A program made the translations under genes and the position numbers. Positions 1 to 58,255 of a DNA stretch of 64,000 bases are shown piece after piece; positions within the stretch are counted from its first letter, which is position 1, and every line of letters starts with the position of its first letter. Under the pieces are notes generated by a model. That model had not been told where the DNA came from. It did not search any database and saw nothing but the letters and a program-made list of their open reading frames with translations. The DNA comes from Phyllobates terribilis (taxonomy: Eukaryota). The DNA is taken from contig NW_027362762.1 of NCBI RefSeq assembly GCF_046119375.1, positions 154,318,001-154,382,000 on the forward strand. The letters are read 5' to 3'.

Positions 1-17
1 TATGCGGTGAGCTAGAT

Positions 18-876
18 ATGTATTCTTTGACTGGCAAACAGAGAGCTGCTGTCATGTTGGGACAATTGACGGGTGCTGCAGAGCGGGAAGTTGAAACCTG
101 GCCAGCCGCAGACCAGGAATCGGTATCCATCATCTTTCAGAGACTGCAAACTGTGTTTGAAAACCGCACTGAGACAGATCTCCGGATGAGGTTCTACCAC
201 TGTGTCCAGAAACCTGAGGACAGTGTCCGGGACTGCGCCTGGCGCTTACAGGAAGCCCTGCGGGCCCTGAAACAGGTTAGTCCAGCCAGCATACAGAATG
301 AAAATAAAATGCTGACGGAACAGTTCATCCGGGGGTTGAGGTCCCAGGAAGAGAGCAGAACTGTACAGTGGTGGGCCCTAGATCATCCAGATACCACCTT
401 TGACACCCTTATGGACACGACTATAAAGGGTCTGCAACCCCTGGAAACATCAGATACTGCTATCGAGCGTTACCAGGGTGTGGCCACCTCAGTGCCTGCA
501 GCACCCACTGCTCCTTCATTAACGGCTGAAACAAAGATGCAAACCGTGCCCCCCTAGCAAGCTGGACAGCCTGCGCTCTGAAGCGAGCCAGTTAAGTAAA
601 ACCCTGGCCACTGTCCTGAGCACCCTGCAGCTACAGGAGGAGCCCGAGCCAGAAGGAAGGATACTACTCGCCGACAGCCCTGAGGATGTCCCCTGGATGA
701 GAAGGAGGACAACGCCGCCCCGGAGGAGGACAATGCCACCCCGTGGGAGGACCAACGACCAACGTCACCCTCCAGGAGAATTCATCTGCTACCGCTGCCA
801 GAAGGCAGGCCGCACAGTGCGGAACTGTCCTTTAAACAAGCAAACCCTGGGGCCGAGGGCCGACACCCAGGAGTAA
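18..876 (+). pseudogene. gag: Gypsy gag (5'-truncated by the window, premature stop at 555-557, degenerate CCHC knuckle CYRCQKAGRTVRNC)
   Basis: Aligns by eye with the intact gag at 3273-4256 (QLTGAAEREVETWP vs QLIGAAQREVKSWP; LQEALRALKQ; LTEQFI). Confidence 0.85.
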
Positions 877-889
877 ATCAAGCAGGCCC
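831..889 (+). promoter_or_regulatory. Predicted -1 ribosomal frameshift signal (TTTAAAC plus H-type pseudoknot), host element
   Basis: Slippery heptamer 831-837; 8-nt spacer; S1 846-851/866-871; S2 857-861/885-889; pol is in the -1 frame relative to gag. Confidence 0.7.
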
Positions 890-911
890 ATCAAACTGGT
901 ACCATCGGTTC

Positions 912-1698
912 ATGGGAGGAAGACCTTTCCTGTCCATTGTGCTGGACGGCATCGCGACACCTGCCCTGCTGGACACTGGATCTCAGGTAACCATCATGCC
1001 AGATGTCCTCTACAAAAGGTTCTGGTCCATAGACGAACTTCGCCCGCCAGCTCCAAACCTTTCCGTGTATGCCTCCAATGGCGTTCCCCTTAACCTAGTC
1101 GGGGTTAAGGATGTGGCAGTAAAGGTGGGAAGAGTGGAACTGAAGGACCAGGGACTAATTGTAGTAGAGACTAATCCTGATGATACAGACTTGTATATGG
1201 TACTTGGCACAAATATTGTCGGTAACTGAGAGAAGTGTTTTTGCTCCAACAGATGGCCGACACTGCAAAACCAGGGCAGAGGAGGGTGCTCCAGAAAGAG
1301 ATCCGAGCCCTTATGTACCAGCAACAGGTAAAGCTAACAGGTGGTGAAATTGGTAATGTACGGGTGACTGACCCGATAAACCTTTTGATCCCCCCGATGA
1401 GTGAGATGCTTATTTGGTGTAGAGCAGCAATAGGTCTCAAAGGATGGAGCTAACAGGCGGTAGTAGAGCCCCTTAGCTCGGAGCATAGACCTACACTCTT
1501 GACTGCCAGAGGGGTAGTGGATGTACGCAATGGGAGGGTGCCCGTACGCCTCCTAAACTATGGAGAGGATGAGGTTAAACTGTACACAGTAGATAACAAC
1601 TCCATACACACGGCGGAGTCCTTAACCTCACCAGACGAGGTGGAGGATAATGACCCGGGAACCCAGGTGGAGGATTGGTATCAACAGCTCCATGTTGG
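912..1698 (+). pseudogene. pol: Host pol, N-terminal part: aspartic protease and linker, interrupted at 1699 by the nested element
   Basis: LDTGSQVT motif. Removing the insert joins CATGTTGG to GACAGACACC and restores HVGTDTTPAHQKQ. Confidence 0.9.
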
Positions 1699-2758
1699 TG
1701 ACGTGCCCCCTGGGCCACTGCTGTAGTGCGGCGCGCGTGCGCGCGGGGGATACCCAGAGCCGGATCCGATGGGGGTAGTAGTCTTCGTGTGGCGGTGACC
1801 CGGTCCGCGCCCAGGGTGGTCAAACTGAGTGGCGGTTATTGGTATGATGGTATTAGTGTCCGACTACGCCACCCGTTGAATGCGGTTATGAAACCGCCGC
1901 TGCAGGGCAGTCCGCTGAGGCCAGTGGTACGGATGTGCAGCGTGGATGGTATAACCCCCAACGGGAGGGGTATGGCCTCAGGGCAGAGGATGAGGTTGAT
2001 GTTGGGAGTGATGGTGTGGATGTCCCAGCACTAATGGTGCGACAAGGAAGCACGGAGACGCGAGGGTACAGTTCAGGGTCTTTACTGATGGTACAAGGCA
2101 AATTCCCCCGGGAGTACTGGCTAGTAGTTGGGGCCTGGTTAGTCTGCGAGTAAGCCGGAGCTCCCCTGGCCAGGTGGAGTTGTAGGCCTTCCCGTTAGTC
2201 TGTACCCTTCCTGGCTACCCTGCTTTCGGCGGTTACAAGTAGCCCACGTCCCTGGGTATACCGTGTGGTGCTCACCCGTATGGCTGGTGACCTGGGGCCT
2301 CCTGTTAGCCTCCGCTCCGGAATGGCGGTGCTGGTCCCTTCGTTGTGACTGAGCCTCCGGGCTTTTAGGGCCAGAGGACCTGGAATCCCCTGCCGGATGG
2401 ATTCTGCTGCTGGGTATATCTTAGTCCCCACAGCCTCGGACTCCTGTGTCCGGTTTTAGTACCTTCTCCCAGGGCGAGCTCTGCACAGCTCCAGCCCCTG
2501 GCGCTTCTCCTTGGCTCCTACAGAGCTCCTGATGTCTCTCTGTCCCTGTTTCTGCGTGTCCAGACCAGACTCCGTCTCTGTCTGGAACTCCTCTCTCCTA
2601 ACCCTGCCTCAGCCCCAGTTTATGTAGGGGAAGTTCTTCCCCTCCCAGGACTGGGCAGTAGGTGTGGCATGCTTAGGATTCCTGCCCAGGAGACCTCCCA
2701 CCTGCTCACAGACGTAATATTGCTATTACTGTGGAAACCAGACCCCTGGGGTGCCACA
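1699..2758 (-). repeat. 3' LTR of the nested element
   Basis: Near-identical to 4688-5747 (about 8 substitutions by eye). Confidence 0.95.
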
Positions 2759-2939
2759 TTCCCCCCTAGTGAAATTTAGTACTCCCGGACTAAACATGAA
2801 AAACATAACAGGGTATAAACAATAACAATTAAATACATGAGATGGTCACGGCGTGTCCGTAACCGGGAAGCAATAAGGGTGTCCATTTCACCAAAGAACA
2901 GGGAGCCGTAACCAGGTAGGGGGTCTGTCCTGCCCCGAG

Positions 2940-3290
2940 TCTTTAACAGTCTGTAGTCCACTATTATCAGTCCTTGTGCCGCCAGTTCGACTTTACCGAT
3001 CTTAATGGTCACCTTTTTGAATCCCACCTGCGGCACGGGCTGACCATTGCTGGCGATGATACTCAGGTCGTCATCTGGGTAGCGGGTTATGTCCGAATCA
3101 TTCCAGTACTGCTTGAAGAGCACGTACGGGATGGTGGTGACCTGTTACCCAGTGTCTAGTAGGGCACTCATAGGAATGCCATCCAGTACCACAGGCAAGA
3201 TTGGACGTCCCCCTACGTATTTATCATGCCAGTTTGATGGGCCTGATGGTCTTATGCCTGGGGGTTGGCCCTCTACCCCAGGTTGTGCCC
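2940..3290 (-). pseudogene. Protease remnant with a nonsense codon directly after the catalytic LDTG
   Basis: ORF 3145-3417 ends LLDTG*; homology to the host protease continues in ORF 2776-3123 (ASNGQP..KVELAAQGLIIV). Confidence 0.85.
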
Positions 3291-3297
3291 GTTTAAA
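3239..3297 (-). promoter_or_regulatory. Predicted -1 ribosomal frameshift signal, nested element
   Basis: TTTAAAC, 8-nt spacer, CCTGGGG/CCCCAGG stem, GGGCC/GGCCC second stem; protease ORF is -1 to gag. Confidence 0.7.
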
Positions 3298-4256
3298 TGA
3301 CAGTACCTTGCCACATGTCCGGGTTGATTGCAGCGGCGGCAAATAGGTCGTCCGTCCTCGTTGTATCGATCGCTGGGTCTTCCTCTGGCCGGTGGGGTCC
3401 TCCTTGGTCGGCGCCACGGGATGTCCTCCGGTCCGGATGCCAGCTCGATCTTCCCTGCAGTAGAAACCTGTAAAGACTGCACAGTTCGGGTTAGCGCGGC
3501 AACGCTTTTAGTTAGCTCTTGGACCTGATGGTGCAGGTCTGTAGCTGGGTCATTGTTTAAAGCCTGCGCATCAGCTCCCACAGGCCCTGCAGACAAGGGC
3601 GCCGTCTCCTGGTGATAAGTGATAGCAGGGCGCCTGTGGGTCACAGCGCCACCTGGTGCCGGTTCTCGGAGCACCCGGATGGCTCTGTCCTTGAACTGTA
3701 CAAAGTCCAGGTCAGGGTCCTGTAAGGCCATTGCCCGCAACTGGGTTCGGTGGGCATTGCACAGTAGACCCTCAATGAATTGTTCAGTTAACAGCTTATC
3801 TTCATTTCCCACGCTGTCAGGGTCTGCCTGCTTAATGGCTCTCAGGGCCTCTTGTAGGTTTAGAGCATAGTCTCTTATACTCTCATGTGCCCGTTGTTTG
3901 CACCCATAAAATCTTAGTTTTATTTCGGCTGAGGTGCGGGTGTCAAATGTGTCTTTCAGCCGGGTTAGTATGTCTCTGACAGTCCTCTTCCTCCCAGGTG
4001 GCCAGGACTTTACCTCCCTTTGGGCTGCCCCGATTAATTGGGCCACCAGGATGCTCACTTTTTGCGCCTCCGTGAGGGGATACACCTGGAAGAGGCTATC
4101 CAGCCTTTCTCTGAAGTCATTTAGGGTATGTGACTCCCCTGAGTACTGGGGTAGCCAGGCTGCCCCCGGGATATAGGGCATGGTGAAAGGCATGACCGCA
4201 GCAGCGGTGGCGCTGGCGGTGGCTGTGGCAGTGAAGCTCTCCTCCGTATCCGACAT
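3273..4256 (-). CDS. gag: Intact Gypsy Gag (327 aa, PNMA-like capsid plus CCHC knuckle CRRCNQPGHVARYC)
   Basis: Uninterrupted ORF downstream of the PBS; canonical CX2CX4HX4C. Confidence 0.88.
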   Translation of the reverse strand: MSDTEESFTATATASATAAAVMPFTMPYIPGAAWLPQYSGESHTLNDFRERLDSLFQVYPLTEAQKVSILVAQLIGAAQREVKSWPPGRKRTVRDILTRLKDTFDTRTSAEIKLRFYGCKQRAHESIRDYALNLQEALRAIKQADPDSVGNEDKLLTEQFIEGLLCNAHRTQLRAMALQDPDLDFVQFKDRAIRVLREPAPGGAVTHRRPAITYHQETAPLSAGPVGADAQALNNDPATDLHHQVQELTKSVAALTRTVQSLQVSTAGKIELASGPEDIPWRRPRRTPPARGRPSDRYNEDGRPICRRCNQPGHVARYCHLNGHNLG

Positions 4257-4664
4257 CCTCCTCCCCCCTAGTGGACCGTGGCCTACCTTGCGATGATCCT
4301 CTTCCGTAGGCCGCGGCTCCGCAGTGGATCGTCAGGGTTGAGGACCTTCCGTCGCGCTCCTGTGACGTCGGCGTCTGCTGGGCTCCTTCCAGGACCTTAC
4401 GCAACGTCCGGACGTGAGGCGTGGCTTCAGTTCTCGCAGGCTTTCGGAGTCCACGCCCCTCTTCTTCCCGCGCGGCGCCCTCAAGATGGCGTCCAATGGC
4501 GGGAAAACTCCACGGATGGCGGGAAGAAGGCAGAAGATGGCGTCGGATGGCGGGAATCGGCTCCAGATGGCGGGAAACGACTCCGGACGGCGGGAAACTT
4601 CACCACAGGTAAGTATAAAAGTCTCTTTTTTCAGGCACGCAGTACCCGGTGGTTGCGGGCACGT

Positions 4665-4683
4665 AATCCTGCCGACTACGCCA
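4665..4683 (-). promoter_or_regulatory. Primer-binding site for tRNA-Ser
   Basis: Plus strand AATCCTGCCGACTACGCCA matches the 3' end of vertebrate tRNA-Ser(AGA/TGA)+CCA as I recall it; lies 4 nt inside the LTR boundary. Confidence 0.85.
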
Positions 4684-4687
4684 AAGT

Positions 4688-5747
4688 TGACGCGCCCCCT
4701 GGGCCACTGCTGTAGTGCGGCGCGCATGCGCGCGGGGGATACCCGGAGCCGGATCCGATGGGGGTAGTAGTCTTCGTGTGGCGGTGACCCGGTCCGCGCC
4801 CAGGGTGGTCAAACTGAGTGGCGGTTATTGGTATGATGGTATTAGTGTCCGACTACGCCACCCGTTGAATGCGGTTATGAAACCGCCGCTGCAGGGCAGT
4901 CCGCTGAGGCCGGTGGTACGGATGTGCAGCGTGGATGGTATAACTCCCAACGGGAGGGGTATGGCCTCAGGGCAGAGGATGAGGTTGATGTTGGGAGTGA
5001 TGGTGTGGATGTCCCAGCACTAATGGTGCGACAAGGAAGCACGGAGATGCGAGGGTACAGTTCAGGGTCTTTACTGATGGTACAAGGCAAATTCCCCCGG
5101 GAGTACTGGCTAGTAGTTGGGGCCTGATTAGTCTGCGAGTAAGCCGGAGCTCCCCTGGCCAGGTGGAGTTGTAGGCCTTCCCGTTAGTCTGTACCCTTCC
5201 TGGCTACCCTGCTTTCGGCGGTTACAAGTAGCCCACGTCCCTGGGTATACCGTGTGGTGCTCACCCGTATGGCTGGTGACCTGGGGCCTCCTGTTAGCCT
5301 CCGCTCCGGAATGGCGGTGCTGGTCCCTTCGTTGTGACTGAGCCTCCGGGCTTTTAGGGCCAGAGGACCTGGAATCCCCTGCCGGATGGATTCTGCTGCT
5401 GGGTATATCTTAGTCCCCACAGCCTCGGACTCCTGTGTCCGGTTTTAGTACCTTCTCCCAGGGCGAGCTCTGCACAGCTCCAGCCCCTGGCGCTTCTCCT
5501 TGGCTCCTACAGAGCTCCTGATGTCTCTCTGTCCCTGTTTCTGCGTGTCCAGACCAGACTCCGTCTCTGTCTGGAACTCCTCTCTCCTAACCCTGCCTCA
5601 GCCCCAGTTTATGTAGGGGAAGTTCTTCCCCTCCCAGGACTGGGCAGGAGGTGTGGCATGCTTAGGATTCCTGCCCAGGAGACCTCCCACCTGCTCACAG
5701 ACGTAATATTGCTATTACTGTGGAAACCAGACCCCTGGGGTGCCACA
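4688..5747 (-). repeat. 5' LTR of the nested element
   Basis: Adjacent to the PBS; near-identical to 1699-2758. Confidence 0.95.
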
Positions 5748-5751
5748 TTGG

Positions 5752-8700
5752 GACAGACACCACTCCTGCCCATCAGAAACAGCGTGTACACCGGGTGGTA
5801 CAGGAATACGAGCAGGTATTCAGTAAACACCCACTTGACTTTGGGAGGATTAAAGGGATACAACACCATATACCCACAGGTGACCATCCATCCATCAAAG
5901 AACGTTACAGCCCCATACCACCAGCACACTACCAGAAGGCGAAGGAGATGTTGCACAACATGAAGAAGGCAGGGGTAGTAAGGGATAGCTGTAGTCCCTG
6001 GGCAGCTCTCCTGGTCCTAGTCAGGAAAAAGGATGGAGGCATGAGAATGTGTGTAGATTACAGACAGGTAAATCGCATAACACACAAAGAATGCATACCC
6101 TTTGCCTCGTATAGAGGAATCCCTGGCTGCATTAAAGTCTGCAAATTACTTCTCCACCCTTGACCTTTCTAGTGGGTACTAGCAAGTAGCTGTTGCTGAA
6201 GAGGATCGGGAGAAGACGGCCTTTACTACCCCGATGGGACTCTGCGAGTTCAACAGTATGCCGTTCGGACTCTGCAACGCCCCTGGAACGTTCCAGAGAT
6301 TGATGGAGTGCTGCCTGGGACACCGCAACTTCGAGACTGTACTGCTATACCTGGATGACATGATAGTGTACACCAAAACGTACGAGGACCATTTGAAGCA
6401 CCTGGCAGAGGTATTTGAGTCGCTGTCCCGGTATGGGATGAAGCTGAAGCCCTCCAAGTGCCACCTGCTCAAGCGAAAGGTACAGTACCTGGGGCACATC
6501 GTCAGTCCAGAAGGAGTAACACCGGATCCGGAGAAGGTCACTGCCATCCTGAAATGGCCGGAGCCGAAGAGCCTCAAGGAGGTACGTCAGTTCCTGGGAC
6601 TAGTCGGGTATTACCGGAGGTTTGTGAAGGACTATACCAAGAAAGCGGCGCCTTTGCAAGATCTCCTGGTAGGACAGTCCAGGAGAGGCAGAAACCCCCC
6701 GTTCCAGTGGGGTAAGGAGCAAGCTGAATCCTTTTGAGGTGATGAAGGAGATCCTGACCTGCGAAGAGATCCTAGCCTACCCTGACTACAGCCAACCGTT
6801 CCTGCTGTACACTGATGCCAGCAACGAGGGATAAGGAGCTGTGTTAAGTCAGAAGCAGAATGGCCGAGAGAAGGTTATCACCTATGCAAGCAGGAAGCTC
6901 CGCCCGACCGAGAGGAACCCAGAGAACTATAGCAGCTTCAAGTTGGAGTTCCTGGCCCTGGTCTGGGCCATCACCGAGCGGTTCAAGCACTACCTAGCCT
7001 CCAGTAAGTTCACTGCCTACACTGATAATAACCCCTTGACTCATCTGGAAACAGCCAAGTTAGGAGCCATGGAACAACGATGGATGGCTCGGCTGTCAAA
7101 CTACCAGTTCACCATTAAGTACCGGGCAGGCCGCAAGAATGCCGATGCCCTGTCCAGGATGCCTCACCAGTCGGACACTGAAGAAGAAGTGGATGACCTG
7201 GAAGAGATTGAGCTACCTGCCTTCCACAGAAATGGGATGGTCCACGAGCAGCGCACCTCCAGGAGGTATCGTGGTAGGACACTAAACCCTTTGCCTCACC
7301 ACAGTTGGAAGGAGACCCAGGACAGCGACCCGGTTGTCAGCCGTATCAAAGAACTGATAACCCAGGAAGGTTCCTCCCTGGAGAAGGACGCATCTCCGCA
7401 AGCCAAGCAACTATGGAATGAGAGAAGCCGGCTGTTCATCTATAGAGAGAAGCTGTGCCGAAGGTATGTCAACCCCAGGACCCATGAGATGGTATGGCAG
7501 ATCGTAGTGCCGAGGACGGACATCCAGATGGTGTTGGAGGCCTACCATGATCAAGCGGGGCACTTTGGCTGGAAGAAGCTAGAAACCCTGCTGAAAGGTC
7601 GGTTTTATTGGGTTGGAATGCGCAGTTCCATAGAGAGATGGTGCTGGGATTGTGGACCCTGTAGCCTCAGAAGAAAAGACTACAACAGCCAGAAGGCACC
7701 CCTGAAACCCATCAAGACAAGATCGTTGCCCTGGATAATGTCAAGCTGTCACCCAGCAGGTCAGGATATTCCTATGCCCTGACCATGGTGGATCACTACT
7801 CCCGGTTCCTGGTGGTCCCCCCTGTCAAGGATCTGACGGCAGAAACTGCGGCGAAGATGTTTCAGGCATACTTCTGCAGGCCCCATGGATACCCAGAGCA
7901 GGTGCTGACAGATCAAGGCACTGCCTTCGATGCCGAATTGTTCAAGGAGTTTTGCCATCTGCACGGGTGTAAGAAGATCCGGACTACACCGTACCACCCC
8001 CAAACCAATGGGTTATGTGAGAAGATGAATAACATTGTCATCGACCTGTTGAAGACCTTACTGCTAGAAGAAAGAAACCAGTGGCCAGACAAGCTACCTG
8101 AACTGGTAGATCTGTACAACCACATACCTGTGAGTTCCACCAATTGTACTCCAGCATATCTCATGCAAGCAAGACCCGGAAAGTTGCCCATGGACCTGGA
8201 GCTTGGTGTAGTAGAACCCGAATCAGATATGTCCACTGAAGACTGGGACACGACGCGACAGGAACAATACAGGAGAGTACAAGTCTGTGTCGAAGACAGT
8301 CTGAATAGGGTAAGCGACAAGCAGGAAGCACAGTACAACAAGAGTGCACAAGCAGAACCCTTTACACCTGGAGACGTTGTGCTAAAGAGAAAAAGAAAAA
8401 AACACAAACTTGATGACCAGTGGGAGAGGGAACCCTACACGGTGTTAAATTCAAGATTTGATAACCGGAAGACCTGTTTAATTACCAAGGACTGAGGAAG
8501 AACGACTGCAACGGTATCTAGAGACCATCTGAAGTTCTGTCCAGGTCTGCTAAAGCCCCAGGAAGAAGTGCCTCTCATCGTACCGGAGGAGCCTAAAGAA
8601 GCAGTAATACATACTGAATTAGGAGATTTCCCGGCAGATTGGCCCCAGCTTTGGAGGAGCAGTGATAATACCTGTGATCCACTTCTACCAACAGCCAGAA

Positions 8701-8976
8701 GACCCTCCACAGCAAGTAGAACCTGTAGGTGCCCCAGAAGAGCCTGCTCAGGAAGAATCCCCGGAAGAAGGATCCCTGGTTGGAGCAGAGCAAGAAGGCC
8801 CAGCCAATGGTACACTTGCCAGTCCCGTAGAGACTTTAAGGCAGTCTTGCAGTCCCTCCACACCTAGAACTGACAGAATGGGAGGTAGTTCAAATACTAG
8901 TGCCTCACGCATCCCAGTACTACGTAGGTCAACACAAAGCACGCAAGGTCAGACCCCTGTCAGATACAGAGAGTAG
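5752..8976 (+). pseudogene. pol: Host pol continuation: RT, RNase H, integrase (fragmented)
   Basis: ORF pieces 5720-6163, 6234-6737, 6841-7782, 7785-8495 with PWAALLVLVRKKDG, MPFGLCNAPGTFQ, YLDD, HHCC zinc finger and DDE motifs; in-frame stops (e.g. TAG near 6180) and frameshifts. Confidence 0.93.
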
Positions 8977-9549
8977 GAAGAGAAACTCTGATAGTATAAA
9001 TAGTTGCCCCTTGGGGAATGTTGTTCTTGTGTAATTTTCATGTATGTATTTATTGACTTATTTTTGCCTTGCAATGGACAATTTAGGTGACATGGACACT
9101 TTTCTTGTTGCATTTAGTTACCCGTAAGGGTATATATAAAGGACTCTGTGGCTGAGGACTGTGTGCAGCCCAAAAACTGTTTATTTGTCCATAGTTGCAC
9201 TCCCTGGAGTGCCCCTTTTAGGTAACCACTGACCAAAAACCTGTTTGGCGTGGCGGAAGACGTGGTCCAACTCCGGATCACCTATGCCCTGCAGCCACGC
9301 CCAGGGTTTACGGACAGGTCCCTCAAGCTACCATGTACTTTGCAGTGAAATGGACACCATGTTAGGGTACTCACTGACAATTGCTCAAGAACTTTAACTA
9401 TTGTACATATATTGATTATTTATTATGTTTTTGTTATCTGTAACGTTCAAGCAAAGTGCCTCCCGTAAAGGGAAGAAAAGTTGTTATTGTTAACCTGTTT
9501 TTGAAAAAAATGCTTCAGTCCAGGAGTACTGAGTTTTACTAGGGGGGAA

Positions 9550-9945
9550 TGTGGCGCCCTGCTGTGCATTGGTGTCACAGAACCCAGAAGGGTGCATGGA
9601 TGGACTTCTCCACAAGAGGCCCTCACACATTCACACACCTCCACCCTACCACCTCAGACCAGCAGAGGGAGCCCGTTAGGGATATATATAGGGAGGGTGG
9701 AGGCTGGCAGCTCAGTGAAGTCAGTGTTCAAAGACAGAGATGAACACAGCTCAGAGTTGAGCAGAGAGCGTGCTGACGCTCAGAAAGCAGTGAAGAGGCA
9801 GCGAGCTGGCTGCGGTGCTTAGGCGAGCCAAGGCCTACAGCAAGTGTGAAGGCCTAGTGAGGGCCTTGAGTGGGCCGAAGGCGAGGGGAGAAGGAAGAAG
9901 TAGTGAGGGGGCAGAGGAGCATACCAGGCTCACCCCGAGATACAT
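9550..9945 (+). repeat. 3' LTR of the host Gypsy element, truncated after ~400 bp at a microsatellite
   Basis: Starts TGTGGCGCCC directly after the PPT; related complete LTRs in the window are 1060-1263 bp. Confidence 0.8.
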
Positions 9946-9985
9946 AGAGAGAGATATATATATATAGATAGATAGATAGATAGAT
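9946..9985. repeat. Compound (GA)n(TA)n(GATA)n microsatellite
   Basis: Seen directly. Confidence 0.9.
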
Positions 9986-11810
9986 AGTAACATACCTGGC
10001 GGCGTCCTTGCATGGTGGTCCATCTCCCACTGTGCAAGAGCGCGCACTTGATCTCCAGTCCAGAATGTCTCTCTGGCTTCCCTCCTTGCTGTCTGTCTGT
10101 TTTGGCTGCATAGGGCGACGCCCGCTGAACTTCCTGTTTCTTGTACCTGCTGCGGACACGCCCCTGTTGCACCTTCAGCCTATTGCTGTCCATCTTTGGG
10201 TATTTATACCACCTTCTTCCTCAAGATGGCGCCTGAGCATTGTGTCCTGTCAGTTGGCGTTTTGTCTCTGACGTGCCAGGTCCTATCCTGTTTTCCTGCC
10301 TGTTCTCCAGTTCTGTGTCTGAACTGTGGTCTGTTCTTGTGAACACGCTTCGAGCCTGTTCTTTCGCCTTCTAGGGGCTGTATTCCTAGATCTGCCTGTC
10401 TGTGCCTTGCGGTATCTGTTCCCATCTGAACAGAGTCCTGTTTGTGTCCCAGCCTTGCTGTATTTGTTCCCGTTCCTCTGTTCCCAGTTGTCTGTGCCTT
10501 GCGGTATCTGTTCCCGTCTGAACAGAGTCCTGTTTGTGTCCCAGCCTTGCTGTATTTGTTCCCGTTCCTCTGTTCCCAGTTGTCTGTGCCTCGTTTCTAC
10601 TTTAGCCTTTTCTCCCTTTTCCCTCTGTCTGTTTTCTGCGCCTTTCTGCAGAGTCTGAACTTGCTCCTAAATTCCTTCTCGTCGTCTCTGTACCTCTGTT
10701 GTGAATTTAGTGTACGCTCGCTACTTCTTTGCAAGTACTTTGTGTGCTTCTGGTTCTGCCTTTCCTTCTCTGTCTGTTCTTTGTGAACAGAGTCCTATCT
10801 CCTTGCCTTGTCTCGTTTGCCGCTCTGCGGTTCCCGCTCTGCTCCTGCCTTGTTTGCCGCTCTGCGGTTCCCGCTCTGCTCCTGCCTTGTTTGCCGCTCT
10901 CCGGTTTCCGCTCTGCTCCTGCCTTGTTTACCGCTCTGCGGTTTCCTCTCTGCTCCTGCTTAGCTTGCCGCTCTTGCGGTTTCTGCTCTGCTCTTGCCTT
11001 GTTTGCCGCTCTGCGGTTCCCACTCTGCTCCTGCCTTGTTTGCCGCTCTGCGGTTTCCACTCTGCTCCTGCCTTGTTGCCGCTCTGCGGTTTCCGCTCTG
11101 CTCCTGCCTTCTTAGCCGCTCTGCGGTTTCCGCTCTGCTCCTGCCTTGTTTACCGCTCTGCGGTTTCCGCTCTGCTCCTGCCTTGTTTACCGCTCTTGCA
11201 GTTTCCACTCTGCTCTTGCCTTGCTTGCCGCTCCTGCGGTTTCTGCTCTGCTTCTGCTCGTTGCTCCGGCAGCCCCGTCCGGCTCTGCATCTGCTCGCTG
11301 CTCCGGCAGTCCTGTCCTGCTCTGCTTGTGCTCGCTGCTCCGGCAGTCCCGTCCTGCTCTGCTCTTGCCCACCGCTTCGGGCGTTCCCTCTCTGCTGTGT
11401 TTGGCTACCGCATCTGTGGTTCTGTTTCTGTGTCCCAGTCTGTACTGGGCCTTGTCCTCTCTGAGCTCCAGCCCATCCTTTCTGCCAGTACCTCCCTGCC
11501 TGCATACTCGCCTGTATCCACCCGTCTGCATACCTGCCGTGTTCGCTTATATCCACCAGTCTGAGCCAGCCTAACCTGCCTGTTCCAGTAATCCCTGTGT
11601 GGGTCAACCCCCGTGTCCGGAGTTTGACCTGGAGTAGCACCTGGTCCCTCTGCCTGGTTTCTCCCTGGTGCACTGGCGTCGTATGCCGTAGTGCCACCTT
11701 GGTCGGATCGGCCAGATACTTAGTCACGCCCCTCCAGGCACTCTCCGGTTCATGGTCCAGTGGAACCACTTCTCCCGCACACGCCAGTCAGTCCGGGCGT
11801 GTGCATAACA
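9986..11810 (+). repeat. 5' LTR (1825 bp) with TATA-like TATTTATA at 10201, a 92-bp internal duplication and a 37-bp minisatellite
   Basis: Direct repeat of 13653-15870; the first base is A instead of T. Confidence 0.92.
10818..11240 (+). repeat. 37-bp minisatellite CCGCTCTGCGGTTYCCGCTCTGCTCCTGCCTTGTTTG in the 5' LTR
   Basis: Tandem units seen directly. Confidence 0.9.
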
Positions 11811-11952
11811 GCATGCTCAGGCCATGGTTCCCGTTGAGCCCCACGGCCTTCGCTCTCTGAGAAGTTTTCCAGCGAATACATGCATTAAAAGTAAATAAAT
11901 AATTTTTTTTTTTTTCTCAGCTGAGTTCCAGGCGAATTACGCACCCGTCCAG

Positions 11953-14013
11953 ATGGATCTATCTGCTCTCGTTCCTGCGGATCCGCCACGTTACTATGGG
12001 GATCCAAGACAAAGTCGTGCATTTGTGGAGCAATGCATGCTACACTTCAAGTTCTACCCTCTATGTTTTCCCACCGATCGGGTTAAGGTGGCATTCGTTA
12101 TGTCTTACCTGGCGGGTGATGCCTTGGAATGGATCAACCCCCTATATGAAACACAGGATCCGATCCTCCTGGACCTAATGGCCTTCCTGGTGGCCTTTCT
12201 AATGGTCTTCGATGATCCTAACCCGGAGGCTCCTGCTGAAGCTTCACCTCCCAATATCCCGGAGCAGCCCCGATGGGTTATGTGTGTGGGTAGCGCAATA
12301 GTCCTCCAGCCCAATGAGACTACTGCCCACCCAGAATCCTCACAGGGTGACTACGCTTTCCGGAATACTTCTCCCAACCTCAAGAGGCAGTCCAGACGTG
12401 CTAGACGTAGAGGCAAGCCGTCACGCCAGGGTCTGTCCTCCCTGAGACCTCCTGACCCCAACCTTGAAGTCCCTACTGAAGCTTCATCTCCCTGTATCCC
12501 GGAGAAGCCCCAACGGGTAATGTGCGTGGGTAGTGCTCCGGTTCTCCTGCCCGAAGAGACTTCTGCCCATCCAGACTCCACACAGGAGAACTTCCTGCAC
12601 CCGGCATCAGATGCTTCACCCACTTTAACCGGTGTGTATGTCCAAGGATGCTCCAAAGCTGTGGTTACCTCTGAGTCTGTGCACCTCTACTACCTGGCGG
12701 AGGACCCCCTGTTGCCTCCTGAATCCTCCGGGATACCACTCGATGACAAATGGAGAGAGACTTCTCTACACTCGTTACTCGATACTTTGTCCGCTTCGTC
12801 CTGTGAGCCTGACAATGGGTACCCCAAAGTGGTAGTTACCCCCGAGTCTCTACACCCCTCCGACCAGGCGGAGGACCTCCAGTTGTCTCCAGAACCCTTC
12901 GGGGTGCCACCTGGTGGTGAATGGACAGAGACTTTCCTATATCCTGGATCTGATACCTCGCTTGCTTCGTCCAGTGATTCCGACCTTGTGTACTCTGAAG
13001 CAGAGGTTACCCATGAGTCTCTACACCCCTCTGACCAGGCGGAGGACCTCCAGCTGTCTCCAGAACCCTTCAGGGTGCCACCTGGTGTTGAATGGACTGA
13101 GACTTTCCTATATTCGGTACCCCATACCTTGCCTGCTTCCTCCAGTGAGTCCGACCTAGTGTACTCTGAAGCAGATGTTTTCTCTGAGCCTCTGCACTCT
13201 TCTGACCCGGCGGAGGACCTCCAGTTGTTTCCTGAATTCTCCGGGGTACCACCAGATAACAAAGAGACAGTGACTTTTCCTCATTATGTACCTGATAACC
13301 CGTCTGTTTCTTCCTGTGAGCTTGACAATATGTACCTCGAAGCAGAGATTACCCCCAAGTCTCTGTCCCCCTCCAACCCGGTGAAGGACTTCCAGTTGTC
13401 TCCTGTACCCTCTGGGGTGCCACCTGAAAATATGTGGAGAGAGACTCCCTTGTGTGCTGTTCCTGGTACTCCACCCATTTCGTCTGTTGCTAAGGATGGC
13501 TGGATAGGAGGTAGCATCCTAGCTAACCAGATGAGATCAATTTTTCCTGTGGACAGTGGAAGTGATCTCCTTGAAGTGAACGACTGGTCCTCGAATTCCC
13601 TGCGGAAGATTCTGGCAGGCCTGAAGAAGAGGGGGCGTAAGGGGGGGGGTACTGTAACATACCTGGCGGAGTCCTTGCATGGTGGTCCATCTCCCACTGT
13701 GCAAGAGCGCGCACTTGATCTCCAGTCCAGAATGTCTCTCTGGCTTCCCTCCTTGCTGTCTGTTTGTCTGTTTTGGCTGCATAGGGCGACGCCCGCTGAA
13801 CTTCCTGTTTCTTGTACCTGCTGCGGACACGCCCCTGTTGCACCTTCAGCCTATTGCTGTCCATCTTTGGGTATTTATACCACCTTCTTCCTCAAGATGG
13901 CGCCTGAGCTTTGTGTCCTGTCAGTTGGCGTTTTGTCTCTGACGTGCCAGGTCCTATCCTGTTTTCCTGCCTGTTCTCCAGTTCTGTGTCTGAACTGTGG
14001 TCTGTTCTTGTGA
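11953..14013 (+). CDS. 686-aa ORF: sushi-type Gag capsid N-terminal domain (LDOC1/RTL-like), duplicated linker, five 57-aa acidic Pro/Ser repeats, read-through into the 3' LTR
   Basis: PPRYYGDPRQSRAFVEQC..KVAFVMSYLAGDALEW..FDDP aligns by eye with residues ~38-117 of the Gag at 52068; repeat anchors at 12700, 12871, 13042, 13213 and 13384 (171-bp period); no stop over 2061 nt. Confidence 0.7.
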   Translation: MDLSALVPADPPRYYGDPRQSRAFVEQCMLHFKFYPLCFPTDRVKVAFVMSYLAGDALEWINPLYETQDPILLDLMAFLVAFLMVFDDPNPEAPAEASPPNIPEQPRWVMCVGSAIVLQPNETTAHPESSQGDYAFRNTSPNLKRQSRRARRRGKPSRQGLSSLRPPDPNLEVPTEASSPCIPEKPQRVMCVGSAPVLLPEETSAHPDSTQENFLHPASDASPTLTGVYVQGCSKAVVTSESVHLYYLAEDPLLPPESSGIPLDDKWRETSLHSLLDTLSASSCEPDNGYPKVVVTPESLHPSDQAEDLQLSPEPFGVPPGGEWTETFLYPGSDTSLASSSDSDLVYSEAEVTHESLHPSDQAEDLQLSPEPFRVPPGVEWTETFLYSVPHTLPASSSESDLVYSEADVFSEPLHSSDPAEDLQLFPEFSGVPPDNKETVTFPHYVPDNPSVSSCELDNMYLEAEITPKSLSPSNPVKDFQLSPVPSGVPPENMWRETPLCAVPGTPPISSVAKDGWIGGSILANQMRSIFPVDSGSDLLEVNDWSSNSLRKILAGLKKRGRKGGGTVTYLAESLHGGPSPTVQERALDLQSRMSLWLPSLLSVCLFWLHRATPAELPVSCTCCGHAPVAPSAYCCPSLGIYTTFFLKMAPELCVLSVGVLSLTCQVLSCFPACSPVLCLNCGLFL

Positions 14014-15870
14014 ACACGCTTCGAGCCTGTTCTTTCGCCTTCTAGGGGCTGTATTCCTAGATCTGCCTGTCTGTGCCTTGCGGTATCTGTTCCCGTCTGA
14101 ACAGAGTCCTGTTTGTGTCCCAGCCTTGCTGTATTTGTTCCCGTTCCTCTGTTCCCAGTTGTCTGTGCCTCGTTTCTACTTTAGCCTTTTCTCCCTTTTC
14201 CCTCTGTCTGTTTTCTGCGCCTTTCTGCAGAGTCTGAACTTGCTCCTAAATTCCTTCTCGTCGTCTCTGTACCTCTGTTGTGAATTTAGTGTACGCTCGC
14301 TACTTCTTTGCAAGTACTTTGTGTGCTTCTGGTTCTGCCTTTCCTTCTCTGTCTGTTCTTTGTGAACAGAGTCCTATCTCCTTGCCTTGTCTCGTTTGCC
14401 GCTCTGCGGTTCCCGCTCTGCTCCTGCCTTGTTTGCCGCTCTGCGGTTTCCGCTCTGCTCCTGCCTTGTTTGCCGCTCTGCGGTTTCCGCTCTGCTCCTG
14501 CCTTGTTTGCCGCTCTGCGGTTCCCGCTCTGCTCCTGCCTTGTTTGCCGCTCTGCGGTTCCCGCTCTGCTCCTGCCTTGTTTGCCGCTCTGCGGTTCCCG
14601 CTCTGCTCCTGCCTTGTTGCCGCTCTGCGGTTCCCGCTCTGCTCCTGCCTTGTTTGCCGCTCTGCGGTTCCCGCTCTGCTCCTGCCTTGTTTGCCGCTCT
14701 GCGGTTCCCGCTCTGCTCCTGCCTTGTTTGCCGCTCTGCGGTTCCCGCTCTGCTCCTGCCTTGTTTGCCGCTCTGCGGTTCCCGCTCTGCTCCTGCCTTG
14801 TTTGCCGCTCTGCGGTTCCCGCTCTGCTCCTGCCTTGTTTGCCGCTCTGCGGTTTCCGCTCTGCTCCTGCCTTGTTTACCGCTCTGCGGTTTCCTCTCTG
14901 CTCCTGCTTAGCTTGCCGCTCTTGCGGTTTCTGCTCTGCTCTTGCCTTGTTTGCCGCTCTGCGGTTTCCGCTCTGCTCCTGCCTTGTTTGCCGCTCTGCG
15001 GTTTCCGCTCTGCTCCTGCCTTGTTTACCGCTCTGCGGTTTCCGCTCTGCTCCTGCCTTGTTTACCGCTCTGCGGTTTCCGCTCTGCTCCTGCCTTGTTT
15101 ACCGCTCTGCGGTTTCCGCTCTGCTCCTGCCTTGTTTACCGCTCTGTGGTTTCCGCTCTGCTCCTGCCTTGTTTGCCGCTCTGCGGTTTCCGCTCTGCTG
15201 CGGCCTTCTTAGCCGCTCTGCGGTTTCCGCTCTGCTCCTGCCTTGTTTACCGCTCTTGCGGTTTCCACTCTGCTCTTGCCTTGCTTGCCGCTCCTGCGGT
15301 TTCTGCTCTGCTTCTGCTCGCTGCTCCGGCAGCCCCGTCCGGCTCTGCATCTGCTCGCTGCTCCGGCAGTCCTGTCCTGCTCTGCTTGTGCTCGCTGCTC
15401 CGACAGTCCCGTCCTGCTCTGCTCTTGCCCACCGCTTCGGGCGTTCCCTCTCTGCTGTGTTTGGCTACCGCATCTGCGGTTCTGTTTCTGTGTCCCAGTC
15501 TGTACTGGGCCTTGTCCTCTCTGAGCTCCAGCCCATCCTTTCTGCCAGTACCTCCCTGCCTGCATACTCGCCTGTATCCACCCGTCTGCATACCTGCCGT
15601 GTTCGCTTATATCCACCAGTCTGAGCCAGCCTAACCTGCCTGTTCCAGTAATCCCTGTGTGGGACAACCCCCGTGTCCGGAGTTTGACCTGGAGTAGCAC
15701 CTGGTCCCTCTGCCCGGTTTCTCCCTGGTGCACTGGCGTCGTATGCCGTCGTGCCACCTTGGTCGGATCGGCCAGATACTTAGTCACGCCCCTCCAGGCA
15801 CTCTCCGGTTCATGGTCCAGTGGAACCACTTCTCCCGCACACGCCAGTCAGTCCGGGCGTGTGCATAACA
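13653..15870 (+). repeat. 3' LTR (2218 bp) with an expanded 37-bp minisatellite
   Basis: Follows the PPT; ends GTGCATAACA like the 5' LTR. Confidence 0.92.
14398..15310 (+). repeat. Same 37-bp minisatellite, longer array in the 3' LTR
   Basis: Tandem units seen directly; the 37-residue period in the ORF translations confirms unit length. Confidence 0.92.
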
Positions 15871-50752: not shown

Positions 50753-51597
50753 ACATCTCAGCCACCCTATGGATAGCAGGGGCGTGTTTGGCTGTCAGTG
50801 CTGTGAGTGACAGCTCAGCCACCCTATGGATAGCAGGGGCAGGTTGGTCTGTCAGTGCTGTGAGTGACAGCTCAGCCACCCTATGGATAGCAGGGGCGTG
50901 TTGGTCTGTCAGTGCTGTGAATGACAGCTCAGCCACCCTGGGGATACCAGGGGCGTGTTGGTCTGTCAGTGCTGTGAGTGACAGCTCAGCCACCCTATGG
51001 ATAGCAGGGGCGTCTTGGGCTGTCAGTGCTGTGAGTGACAGCTCCGCCACCCTATGGATAGCAGGGGCATGTTGGGATGTCAGTGCTGTGAGTGACAGCT
51101 CAGCCACCCTATGGATAGCAGGGGCATGTTGGGCTGTCAGTGCTGTGAGTGACAGCTCAGCCACCCTATGGATAGCAGGGGCGTCATGGGCTGTCAGTGC
51201 TGTGAGTGACAGCTCTGCCACCCTATGGATAGCAGGGGCGTGTTGGTCTGTCAGTGCTGTGAATGACAGCTCAGCCACCCTATGGATAGCAGGGGCGTGT
51301 TGGTCTGTCAGTGCTGTGAGTGACAGCTCAGCCACCCTATGGATAGCAGGGGCATGTTCGGCTGTCAGTGCTGTGAGTGACAGCTCAGCCACCCTACGGA
51401 TAGCAGGGGCGTGTTGGTCTGTCAGTGCTGTGAATGACAGCTCCGCCACCCTATGGATAGCAGGGGAGTGTTGGGCAGTCAGTGCTGTGAGTGACAGCTC
51501 AGCCACCCTATGGATGGCAGGGGCATGTTGGGCTGTCAGTGCTGTGAGTGACAGCTCAGCCACCCTATGGATAGCAGGGGCATGTTGGGCTGTCAGT
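50753..51597. repeat. 57-bp satellite array, left block
   Basis: Unit GACAGCTCAGCCACCCTATGGATAGCAGGGGCRTGTTGGKCTGTCAGTGCTGTGAGT. Confidence 0.97.
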
Positions 51598-52067
51598 TGT
51601 TAGAACCTTGCTCTTAGGTCTTTTTTCCTTTGCTGGTCACATGACCTTGTTGGCCTATTTAATCCTGCTCCGCCCTTCTGGCTTTGCTGGACTTCATTGT
51701 ATATCTACTTTCTAGCTAGCCTGTGCTCTGTGTCTTGCTCTGTTAGTTTGCTTTGTCTACTGACCTCTATGTTCTATATATTTTGTTTGTTCGTCTGTCT
51801 GCTACTATTTCTGTTAGGAGGTGTCCCATATTCCTCCCAGTCCTTAGTACTTGTAGGGATTCCTTCCCCACATCTATAGGTCTCCGTACAGACTAGCTTA
51901 GGACTTTAGCAGGTCTGATCGCAGGATCAGGTCCCCTGTTACATCGTAGGGATTAAGCTGAGTTCTATCGTAGGGACAGATCTCCTCTCTTTCCTTAGCT
52001 CTGGTAGCAGAACATAACAGTAAGTCCAGCCAGCAAATTCTCTAAGGAAAGATTTTTCTGTTCCATC

Positions 52068-55000
52068 ATGGTGTCGGTTCAGGATTTGGTTCATCGCCTG
52101 CAGGGACTCTCTCTGGAGGTGGCCGAGCTCCGTCAGCACGTGAGTAACTGTCCTGGAGCACATTTCTTGGAGCCTAAGGTATGTTTGCCGGATTTATTTT
52201 TTGGTGAACACCGAGAATTTTTTTCATTTAAAAATGCTTGCTTATTGTATTTTCGTTTGAGACCTAAGTCCTCTGGGGATGAATCCCAGCGCGTAGGGTT
52301 CATAATGTCACTTTTGCGCAAAGAGCCTCAGGAGTGGGCCTTTTCTTTGCAACCTAGTGATTCATGCTTCAGATCAGTGGATAGTTTTTTTTCTGCTTTG
52401 GGACTATTATATGATGATCCTGACCGTGTCGCATCAGCTGAGACTGAGTTGAGACGTTTAAAACAAGGATCAGGTAATGTGGAAAAATATTGTACTCATT
52501 TCCGTCGTTGGTCTACTCAAACAGGGTGGAACGATTCTGCTCTGAAAAGTCTATTTCTTGCTGGGCTCAGTGAAAGGGTTAAAGACCTGCTAATTGCTTA
52601 TCCTACACCTGAAGATTTGCAACAGGCTATGCAATTAGCTATACGGGTGGATAGAAGACTGCGTGCAAGGGTTAATGAGAGCAAATCCTCTTCTATGTCA
52701 GTTTCTGGTTATGAGAATGTGTGTACTAACAGTGGTGAACCGATGGAGATTGGATCGGTGGCACCTCGCTCTCAAGAAAAAGATCGTCGATTTTCTGAAG
52801 GCTTGTGTTTCTATTGCGGAAAATCTGGTCATTTGATTAAAGGCTGTGAGCTTCGTATGAAGAAAGAAAAAAAAATGGTCAGTCACGCCCGTATTGCCTG
52901 TTTAAATTCCAAGGGTATATTTTTAGCTGCTTCCACGATTGCTCAGAAAAAATTAATGGAATTTCGGGTGTTTGTTGATTGCGGGTCTACTCTGAATGTA
53001 ATTGATGGGGGATTCGTGGAAAGACTCAATTTGAAACCTGAACCTTTATCATCCCCCATTGCTGTGGTTTCTGTGGATGGTTCCCCTTTGAAGAATATTA
53101 CTCTCAAGGTCTGTGAATTTCCTCTCACTATTAATGGTGTTCACCATGAGAAATTGGATTTGGTAGTGTTGAATAACTTGCCTTCTCCAGTAATATTGGG
53201 ATTGCCCTGGTTAAAATTTCACAATCCTGTACTGGATTGGTCTACCAGTGAAATTAAATCCTGGAGCCATAAATGTTATGACAAGTGTTGTAACGGGCGT
53301 ATTGCAGCTTTGGATAGGGGAGAATTGCCTGTTCCTATTCAGGATTTTTGGAGAGTTTTTTCTGAGAAGGAGTCGCAGGTTTTGCCTCCCCATAGAGACT
53401 ATGATTGTTCTATTGAATTTGTCCCTGGAGCGACTCTTCCTAAAAGTCGTTTATTTAACCTTACTATTCCTGAGAGGAAGGCTTTGGAGGAATACATACA
53501 GACAAGTTTGGCCGCCGGTCACATTAGGCCCTCTAAGTCTCCTGTGGCGGTTGGATTTTTTTTTGTAAAAAAAAAGGACGGCGGTTTACGTCCTTGTCTG
53601 GATTTTCGTGAGATTAACAAAATTACTGTACGCAATCCTTACCCACTGCCATTGATTCCTGATCTGTTTAACCAGTTAATGGGGGCCAAGTGGTTCTCTA
53701 AAATTGACCTTAAGGGGGCATACAATCTGTTGCGCATGAAGGAGGGTGATGAATGGAAGACTGCTTTTAACACTCCTGTGGGTCATTTTGAGAATCTGGT
53801 TATGCCTTTTGGTCTTACTAATGCTCCTGCATTTTTTCAGAATCTGATTAATGACATCCTTAGACCTTTGATCGGTAAAAATGTGGTTGTGTATTTGGAT
53901 GACATTTTGATTTATTCGCCAGATCTGGAGTCTCATTGGCGGAGCGTGCGTGAGGTATTACAGTTATTAATGGACAATTCGCTTTTTGCTAAGCTGGAGA
54001 AATGTGAGTTCGCTGTACAGAGAATTAGTTTTTTGGGCTACATTATCTCCAGCAAAGGTTTTGAGATGGATCCGGTTAAGGTTCAGGCTGTGCAGGAATG
54101 GCCTAGGCCTATTGGTTTGAAATCGATACAGAGGTTTTTGGGTTTCGCCAATTACTACAGAAAATTCATAAAAAAATTTTCTAGTATTGTCAAACCTCTG
54201 ACTGATCTCACCAGGAAAGGTGCTGATGCGGTTCAGTGGTCTTCTGAGGCCATTGAAGCTTTTGTGTATCTCAAGGAGAGGTTCACCTCTGCTCCCATCC
54301 TTATGCAGCCTGATGTTACTAGGCCGTTTTTGGTTGAGGTTGATGCTTCCTCTGTGGGGGTTGGCGCAGTATTGTCTCAGGATAATGGGGATGGATTACA
54401 TCCCTGTGCCTTTTTTTCAAAAAAATTTTCGGAGACTGAACTGAATTACGATATTGGTAATCGGGAATTATTGGCTATTAAACTCGCATTTGAACACTGG
54501 CGCCACTTCTTGGAAGGTGCGGAATTTCCCGTTCAGGTTCTTACGGATCATAAAAATCTGATATATCTTGATGCTGCCAAGCGCCTGAATGCCCGTCAGG
54601 CTAGGTGGGCACTGTTTTTCTCGCGGTTTAATTTCTCCGTTACTTACATCCCTGGTACTAAGAATGTTAAGGCGGATGCCTTGTCTCGCAGTTTTTCTCC
54701 CATAGTCGGTGCTGAGAAAGAGGAGAACATTTTACAAGAAGGTGTTGTGATAGCTGCTTTGGACTCTGTTTTGGAAAATGAGATTCTTAAAGCACAGGAG
54801 AATGCCCCTTCTAACACTCCTCATGGGAGGTTGTTTGTGCCTGGGACCTTTAGGAGTGATTTGCTTGTTGAGTGTCACGAATCTCGGTTGGCAGGTCATC
54901 CCGGAATCTCTGAGACCAAGAGACTGGTGGGTCGCAGTTTTTGGTGGCCTGGATGGCAGAAGGAAGTCATTAAGTGGGTGCGTCAATGTACTATATGTGC

Positions 55001-55372
55001 TAGATCTAAGTCCTCACATACTCCTGCTGCGGGGTTGCTTTGTCCTTTGGAGGTTCCCAGTGCTCCTTGGACACATTTGGCTATGGACTTTATAACTGAC
55101 CTTCCCCCCTCTGAGGGTTTTACTGTCATCTGGGTGGTCGTGGACCGTTTTAGCAAGATGTGTCACTTGGTTCCTTTCGTCAAACTGCCCTGCGCTAAAA
55201 CTCTCGCTAAGGCCTTTGTCAAGGAAATTGTCAGACTTCATGGCGTTCCTACTGACATTGTTTCTGATAGGGGTCCTCAGTTCGTGGCTCGTTTTTGGCG
55301 TGCCTTTTGTGATAGGTTGGGAGTTCATTTGTCGTTCTCGTCCGGATATCATCTTGAATCTAATGGCCAGAC
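52068..55372 (+). CDS. gag-pol: Gag-Pol polyprotein part 1 (capsid, CCHC knuckle, protease, RT, RNase H, integrase N-terminus and core up to NGQT)
   Basis: CFYCGKSGHLIKGC; FVDCGS; YLDD; VDASSVG; HHCC; MDFITDLP; VSDRGPQF; no stops. Confidence 0.93.
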
Positions 55373-55777
55373 CAGGGGCGGAACTACCGCCCGTGCAGCC
55401 GGTTCATTGAACGGGGGCCCCGAGGGAGAGGGGGCCCCTCCAGCCTCCAGCAGGGCCGCCATCAGGGCATGACTGCCCTGACTCCAGTATGGGGCCCGGC
55501 CGGTAGGGGCCCCCTCGGGGGCCCCCCTCTTGTGCGTCTCTCTCCGGGGCCCCATGCTATGCGCCGGGTCCGGGACATTTCAGCGCTGAGCTGCGCTGTT
55601 GCAGCAGCGCCTTGATGATTCCCCTGACTTCCGGTCATGTGACGGTGCCGTCACATGGCCGGAAGTCAGGAGAACCTGCTGTCAGCGATTTGGACGAGCG
55701 CCAGGATTCTGCAGGGATCGCATGGGGGTAAGTATAACAAGTTTTATTTTTTTTAAAATACAATTAACTAGGAGTGG

Positions 55778-55923
55778 NNNNNNNNNNNNNNNNNNNNNNN
55801 NNNNNNNNNNNNNNNNNNNNNNNNNNNNNNNNNNNNNNNNNNNNNNNNNNNNNNNNNNNNNNNNNNNNNNNNNNNNNNNNNNNNNNNNNNNNNNNNNNNN
55901 NNNNNNNNNNNNNNNNNNNNNNN
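55778..55923. other. Assembly gap (run of N)
   Basis: Seen directly. Confidence 0.99.
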
Positions 55924-58150: not shown

Positions 58151-58255
58151 GGGTTATGTTTACATAACTTTGTTGCCTTATGAAGGGCAGGGGGGGCCCC
58201 CCAAAATTTCTTGCACAGGGGCCCACTACAGTCTGTGTCCGCCCCTGGGCCAGAC

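Follow-up and report, generated by a model that had tools for sequence, protein, structure and literature searches.

Non-autonomous LTR elements usually encode either nothing or a whole Gag. The plant TR-GAG elements are non-autonomous and recently active, have LTRs, a primer-binding site (PBS), a polypurine tract (PPT) and a 5-bp TSD, and encode a Gag precursor from one gag-derived ORF within less than 4 kb (PMC4350172). The Tf1/sushi group of Ty3/gypsy chromoviruses is known for its self-priming mode, and has TG..CA LTRs, 5-bp TSDs, a sushi-type Gag N-lobe and a Pol whose chromodomain end runs into the PPT (PMC6317226). In mammals, RTL8 and LDOC1 of the sushi lineage encode a capsid N-lobe without the C-lobe (PMC11684626, PMC10516033), several RTL genes have long disordered extensions, and the cut that gave the half-capsid genes is believed to have happened shortly after they were born (PMC10516033). 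RTL8, which consists of the N-lobe only, binds the N-lobe of PEG10, enters particles and lowers their number (PMC11684626), and the Ty3 N-lobe binds both itself and the C-lobe (PMC2878294). Ty1 p22/p18 is also an element-encoded truncated capsid, but it consists of part of the C-lobe, and an autonomous element produces it by using an internal start (PMC11684626).

The element that we studied lies in the window, i.e., the whole 64,000-nt stretch of DNA that was analysed. Its self-priming PBS, TG..CA LTRs, 5-bp TSDs and sushi-type N-lobe are those of the Tf1/sushi lineage, of which it is a member, and it has a degenerate remnant of the chromodomain end that runs into the PPT; unlike the described elements of that group, it is non-autonomous, being without a functional protease, RT, RNase H, integrase, C-lobe and knuckle. 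As in TR-GAG, we found LTRs, a PBS, a PPT, TSDs and a single ORF. However, the element is 5.9 kb long and resides in an animal genome, and in place of a whole capsid plus nucleocapsid it encodes the N-lobe only, fused to Pol remnants and repeats. Its domain cut is that of RTL8 and LDOC1, but these are fixed host genes, whereas the studied family is mobile, with about 9,000 copies and with selection apparently acting at transposition. The earlier note had named Ty1 p22/p18 as a parallel; since p22/p18 is a C-lobe fragment and the ORF matches the Gag N-lobe, this parallel does not hold, and RTL8 is the proper analogue. The listings of open-access papers that we searched showed no description of such a family, though repeat libraries or supplements may catalogue it without this reading. 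Here a very successful non-autonomous element keeps the capsid N-lobe only, in a genome that preserves intermediates between Gag-Pol and the present form; the half-capsid cut can spread and stay open inside a mobile element.

Anatomy and abundance of the element

The window copy is 5,885 bp long and is inserted in a microsatellite, with the flanks TAGAT/TATAT; all its features described here are on the plus strand. The 5' LTR (9986/7..11810) begins with A rather than T, and contains a TATA-like box (10201..10208) and a long U5 in which units of 92 bp and 37 bp are repeated in tandem. It differs from the 3' LTR (13653..15870) by 17 mismatches in 1,715 aligned bases, tandem-array length differences aside. 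The PBS (11811..11823) is of the self-priming type, being complementary to the element's own R region, where a 10-bp duplex (-18.8 kcal/mol) can form with the predicted transcript start and self-primer (10231..10240). The PPT (13623..13652) has a G run of variable length, and is near-identical to that of two autonomous elements, L159 and L160.

The ORF (11953..14013) has 686 codons (686 aa) and zero internal stops, while the remaining five frames of this internal region have 11-49 stops each, in agreement with the single stop-free frame described in the earlier note. It begins with the capsid N-terminal lobe (aa 1-90, 11953..12222), followed by a linker (12214..12591) that contains two copies of a 46-aa block (12214-12351 and 12454-12591) as well as an Arg-rich stretch (12382-12429); the latter goes back to the portion of Gag behind the capsid and occurs in the listed proteins of all eight subfamily clusters. 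Next come 4.5-5 units of a 57-aa acidic Pro/Ser-rich repeat (12658..13464), a degenerate chromodomain plus Pol C-terminus (aa 505-573, 13465..13671) reading through the PPT, and an LTR-encoded tail (13653..14013) whose length and frame vary between copies. Both the linker duplication (aa 88 and aa 168; 77% DNA identity) and the five repeat positions at 171-bp spacing (12700, 12871, 13042, 13213 and 13384) were given correctly before; the 171-bp array of the window copy has 4.5 copies with 75% matches and 0% indels. However, "5 x 57" and "686" apply to the window copy only, because the repeat number and the position of the stop in the LTR vary among copies. In Pfam, the ORF matches DUF4939 alone (aa 11-86, E 5.9e-9), with no match to protease, RT, integrase, zinc knuckle or Retrotrans_gag. 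The earlier description of the element as pol-less stands for the protease, RT and integrase domains, but not for Pol as a whole, because aa 505-573 are a degenerate Pol chromodomain.

Exact-pattern searches of the 10.6-Gb genome returned 5,463 matches for a 25-mer, 9,317 for the PBS and 9,546 for the PPT-LTR junction, versus 0 and 22 matches for the PBS and junction controls, respectively; the family has about 9,300-9,500 copies. We sampled 60 of the first 61 25-mer sites listed on one contig (C1), leaving out one tandem partner, and added the window copy to form a set of 61 copies. The pol-less interior is identical in kind in 60 of the 60 sampled copies, and protease, RT, RNase H and integrase are absent from all of them as well as from the window copy. 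The PBS-pairing 10-mer is found in 56 of the 61 3' LTRs, and 5-bp TSDs flank 54 of the 57 measurable copies, whose LTRs differ by a median of 0.15% and are identical in nine cases. The frame is open to the PPT in 55 of the 61 copies, hence the check for stops or frameshifts in most other copies came out negative. The number of repeat units ranges from 4 to 9, the ORF stops at +2, +27, +226 (28 of the 55), +289, +358 or other positions past the LTR start, and the chromodomain remnant is deleted in 31 of the 60 copies. Subfamilies differ by up to 96 in 700 nt, and the older ones by 15-25%. Four of the 60 sampled copies carry two tandem in-frame N-lobes, and the junction motif has 236 matches in the genome, so that at least 236 copies have the doubled lobe; in a structure model of the doubled form, only lobe 1 is predicted with confidence (pLDDT about 96, versus about 68 for the other; pTM 0.56).

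Several further variations were noted. In the doubled-lobe subfamily (L060, L064, L073 and L035; G000:C1) the two lobes have diverged, and the single-lobe subfamilies look like mosaics of both. Copies arranged head to tail, at a distance of about 4 kb and with LTRs in common, are frequent (G000:C1:86492389-86504727 and C11:323165306-323170283). Subfamilies with an A inside the PPT G run (window 13623-13652; clusters 3, 4 and 6) enter the LTR in a fixed frame, and the pure-G subfamilies slip.

Identity and descent of the ORF

Searching 1.84 billion proteins with the ORF product using HMMER, we obtained 917 matches at E<=0.001, and the 150 matches listed all cover only residues ~2-125; five of the seven top matches looked up were named, coming from frogs and a caecilian, which makes an amphibian the probable host. 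Two word-index protein searches returned no match at E<=0.001, unlike the full HMMER search. The domain found by Pfam, DUF4939, is what we take to be the LDOC1/RTL8 family. AlphaFold, run on 120 sequences, gave a mean pLDDT of 88.6 for the N-lobe. The proposed check of the N-terminus by HMM and AlphaFold came out in favour of a capsid lobe. In a structural search with the N-lobe model, capsid lobes occupy ranks 1-33, and the Ty3 CA-NTD (6r22) aligns over 74 residues with a Z of 7.5 and an rmsd of 2.3, although the Z values are middling and include C-lobes, so that structure alone cannot separate an N-lobe from a C-lobe. Foldseek found no match at E<=0.001, its best rows being capsid lobes. At the sequence level, the domain aligns to aa 77-164 of the full Gag of a sister family, ending at the lobe boundary, with 53% identity; the match to Ty3 covers aa 35-100 at an E-value of 0.78. 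A match to the sushi-type Gag at window position 52068 had been claimed before, and it holds (29% identity over 86 aa, E 4e-9), but the motif there reads LEPKVCLP, not PEPKVCLP. On sequence grounds, we assign the N-terminal domain as the capsid N-lobe. Its last helix (window 12160-12210) is more hydrophobic than that of the sister Gag, with two basic residues replaced in this subfamily.

The Gag-start pattern occurs at 50 sites in the genome, and the 30 that we fetched include full Gags and an older subfamily (LTR divergence 3-7.5% over 11 copies). In this subfamily, a single frame begins at the Gag start, takes in the N-lobe and, with the C-lobe missing, a degenerate nucleocapsid, and then reads on by way of a protease that lacks the catalytic motif, the RT leader, 2-4 repeats and the chromodomain into the PPT. 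The vestigial Gag start is in frame with the N-lobe in the older copies L152, L153 and L154. When an older copy, with X at its stops, was compared with the sister element by BLASTP, the E-values were 9e-29 for Gag, 4e-22 for Pol 1-219 and 8e-7 for the chromodomain. In the window ORF, aa 505-581 match the sister-family Pol chromodomain with an E-value of 1e-6, a score reached by 0 of 300 shuffles, while Pfam found no match in this remnant. The sister-family Pol likewise reads through the PPT into the LTR. The older intermediates, the chromodomain match and the read-through of the sister Pol together indicate that the ORF is a Gag-Pol polyprotein shortened stepwise in frame, losing the C-lobe first and then the nucleocapsid, protease and RT remnants, with the read-through inherited. 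The meaning attached earlier to the read-through tail is not sustained, as the tail is inherited from Pol and is frame-shifted between subfamilies.

L152, L153, L155, L102, L103 and L168-L171 represent intermediates of the reduction, in which degenerate remnants of the nucleocapsid, the protease and the RT leader share a single frame. The more diverged L124/L157 and L150/L156 have the Gag start and the N-lobe, with an apparent in-frame loss of the C-lobe in L150; they may be earlier or independent truncations. We rejected three other readings: the ORF is collinear with Gag-Pol, and not a third ORF that an autonomous parent had in addition; a conserved membrane-anchor tail is at odds with the frame shifts between subfamilies about 35 codons into the LTR; and derivation of the 171-bp unit from the RT-RNase H junction failed, since 71 and 128 of 300 shuffles scored as well and the DNA comparison was at shuffle level.

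Selection on the frame and the N-lobe

The frame from the ATG to the PPT anchor is retained in 58 of the 61 copies. All five shared indels in the non-repeat part of the ORF (+279, -195, +3, +6 and a deletion in cluster 3) are in frame, and the sole shared frameshifts between the ATG and the LTR among the 61 copies are in the G run of the PPT. In the 140-nt leader, four of the four shared indels are 1 nt long and frame-breaking, and the LTR tail has several of 1-2 nt. We infer a chance of about 0.004 for five in-frame indels out of five, a figure that is less strict if some of them were repeat-guided. The N-lobe is retained through every deletion.

Within the N-lobe, the pN/pS of the 61 copies is 0.31 for shared versus 0.92 for private changes (Fisher p 0.012), and shared and private changes show no contrast in the rest of the ORF (p 0.79). 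In the 11 older copies, the values for the N-lobe are 0.37 and 0.89 (p 0.05), and the other Gag/Pol remnants give non-significant values of 0.41-0.62. The contrast is weaker in an enlarged set of 87 N-lobes (0.41 versus 0.66, p 0.12). Over the whole tree, omega is 0.67 for the N-lobe (87 sequences), 0.96 for the linker (83) and 0.75 for the dead chromodomain remnant (49). After correction for transition bias, the N-lobe omega is 0.57-0.62 for shared changes (p 0.002-0.008) and 0.92-1.0 for private ones. Shared amino-acid changes in the N-lobe avoid sites that are conserved across 119 homologues (rho -0.39, p 0.0004), whereas shared synonymous changes do not (rho 0.03); private changes show a less clear tendency of the same kind (rho -0.18), and the shared and private sets are not significantly different (Fisher p 0.82). 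Synonymous changes are shared at 48 in 81 N-lobe codons versus 28 in 53 linker codons. These data indicate moderate purifying selection on the N-lobe between subfamilies, with an omega of about 0.6.

The repeats and the linker look near neutral. The dN/dS between the five window repeats is 0.76, within the range of the shifted control frames (0.67 and 0.90), there is no third-position excess, and in simulations repeats remained stop-free with a chance of 0.06-0.14 at tree lengths of 0.5-0.8. The selection on a protein that the earlier note proposed is supported for the frame and the N-lobe, but at the amino-acid level it is not supported for the repeats. The 11 older copies contain 13 private stops and several frameshifts. 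Our reading is that selection during transposition preserves the frame and, to a moderate degree, the N-lobe, while inserted copies decay neutrally without selection by the host.

Expression, candidate helpers and possible roles of the half-capsid

Modern copies have an upstream ORF of 19-25 codons at the old Gag start; it begins in a strong context and ends 47-64 nt before the main ATG (seven copies examined), and in the window it has 24 codons (11824..11898). The U5 carries 2-11 further ATGs per copy, 288 in total in 56 non-independent copies, about half the 611 expected from shuffling. Just upstream of the ORF, all 61 copies have a CAG or TAG preceded by 12-14 pyrimidines in 14 positions, a splice-acceptor-like tract ending in YAG (11903..11920 in the window). 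A scan of the copies for donors, with approximate weights, found no conserved strong splice donor. Re-initiation and splicing are both possible routes to the main ORF.

Among 11 + 15 + 30 candidates, collected from PBS variants, unpaired PPT/PBS sites and Gag-start patterns, none was an autonomous element with the same LTR. A sister family, with which the element has its PBS/R design and PPT end in common, counts at least 126 copies of Gag that are 98-100% identical, and its Gag contains both Retrotrans_gag and the knuckle in Pfam. Nine of 20 members fetched from the best matches have a Pol frame of over 1,090 codons, and the LTR pairs differ by 0.2-1.6% (14 measurable). Two sister junction patterns have 4,187 and 5,823 matches in the genome, the second being associated with integrase/chromodomain sequence, in the frame listed, in at least nine of 12 loci. 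These young autonomous sister families are candidate helpers.

The explanation that we place first, though it falls a little short of being probable, is that the half-capsid of this young non-autonomous Tf1/sushi element is likely translated and co-assembles with the helper capsid in a way that favours packaging of the element's own RNA. It is supported by the copy number and youth of the family, by the preservation of the frame, by the selection on the N-lobe together with its retention and in-frame duplication, by the presence of young autonomous sister families with a similar PBS, R and PPT, and by the capsid binding of the isolated N-lobes of RTL8 (PMC11684626) and Ty3 (PMC2878294). The element would borrow protease, RT and integrase from a sister family, would prime reverse transcription by pairing its PBS with its own R region, and would express the ORF either through ribosomes that re-initiate downstream of the short upstream ORF or through splicing at the acceptor-like site. 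The N-lobe would bind the helper capsid and so enter helper particles, the Arg-rich stretch may bind RNA in place of the lost knuckle, and the repeats may form a disordered spacer of variable length, with selection working through transposition rather than the host. Co-assembly for the element's own benefit is ranked first because such a protein is of use to a parasite only when it favours the parasite's own RNA. Several observations count against this explanation, namely, that RTL8 lowers particle yield rather than helping cargo, that mini-Ty1 and mini-Ty3 transpose without any protein of their own (PMC4974528), that the U5 ATGs and the upstream ORF, with no strong donor, disfavour translation of the ORF, that the selection signal in the N-lobe is moderate (p 0.12 in the 87-lobe set; whole-tree omega 0.67, versus 0.75 for the dead chromodomain; private changes leaning the same way as shared ones), and that none of the candidates proved to be an autonomous element carrying this LTR. 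A more specific form of co-assembly, possible but doubtful, is that this vertebrate parasite evolved the half-capsid as a "boarding pass", consisting of an N-lobe that is sometimes doubled, a basic RNA-binding patch and a tunable disordered tail, which enters helper particles and biases them towards the RNA of the parasite. If this is true, the RTL8/LDOC1 design arises and is selected inside mobile elements before host domestication. One genome contains thousands of copies together with candidate helpers, so that the effect of a half-capsid on particle assembly, be it help or hindrance, can be tested directly.

A somewhat unlikely alternative is that the frame stays open because translation protects or routes the genomic RNA, e.g., against nonsense-mediated decay, the protein itself having no partner and the N-lobe region persisting through overlap with an RNA packaging signal or as harmless folding. 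The near-neutral evolution of the linker, repeats and chromodomain remnant fits this, as do the C-terminus, which is arbitrary yet nearly always at or past the PPT, and the location of the Ty1 packaging sequences in the 5' part of the RNA (PMC4974528). However, it is non-synonymous and not synonymous change that is reduced in the N-lobe, the changes track conservation in the capsid family, and an entire N-lobe has been duplicated in frame.

It is less likely that the protein is an RTL8-like decoy, which, once inside helper particles, would reduce how many form or how well they work, and so restrain the spread of the helper or the total load. The domain cut is the same as in RTL8, a protein that decreases particle numbers and binds to the N-lobe of PEG10 (PMC11684626), and the C-lobe needed for lattice contacts is absent. 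On the other hand, the success of a parasite depends on helper particles, therefore a pure inhibitor should be lost from it, and this helper-dependent family, at about 9,000 copies, exceeds both sister junction classes (4,187 and 5,823) while being at least as young.

We consider it quite improbable that the ORF is an untranslated relic, open owing to youth, recombination between repeat units and few master copies. The median LTR divergence of 0.15%, the automatic preservation of frame by 171-bp changes, the uncoupling of the original Gag start from the ORF and the non-negligible simulated chance of stop-free repeats (0.06-0.14) all agree with a relic. Against it, the diverged subfamilies (96 in 700 nt; the older at 15-25%) have, among the 61 copies sampled, no stop or frameshift in common ahead of the PPT, the adjoining 140-nt leader has fixed four frameshifting indels, and the N-lobe omega is below 1. 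Early host domestication of a half-capsid gene, which the earlier note had offered as one possibility, is very improbable despite the LDOC1/RTL8-like architecture and the disordered tails of RTL genes (PMC10516033), because the about 9,000 dispersed copies decay neutrally one by one (private omega 0.92-1.0; 13 private stops plus frameshifts in 11 older copies), and the window copy has full LTRs and lies among other transposons.

As for the rest of the window, a second sushi-type element (51559-59451) comprises Gag-Pol (52068) and a separated integrase-chromodomain piece (58140), has a PBS complementary to its own LTR and lies inside a 57-bp satellite; nesting between its relatives and the studied family occurs either way round (L039 and L113). 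Another Gypsy lineage is represented by a PNMA-like Gag with a zinc knuckle at 3273-4256 on the minus strand (Pfam E 4e-6) and by fragmented pol ORFs at 6234-8495 on the plus strand. Directly after the 3' LTR, the segment 15881-17303 has 66-nt inverted arms at 16086 and 17238, and resembles a Tc1/mariner end.
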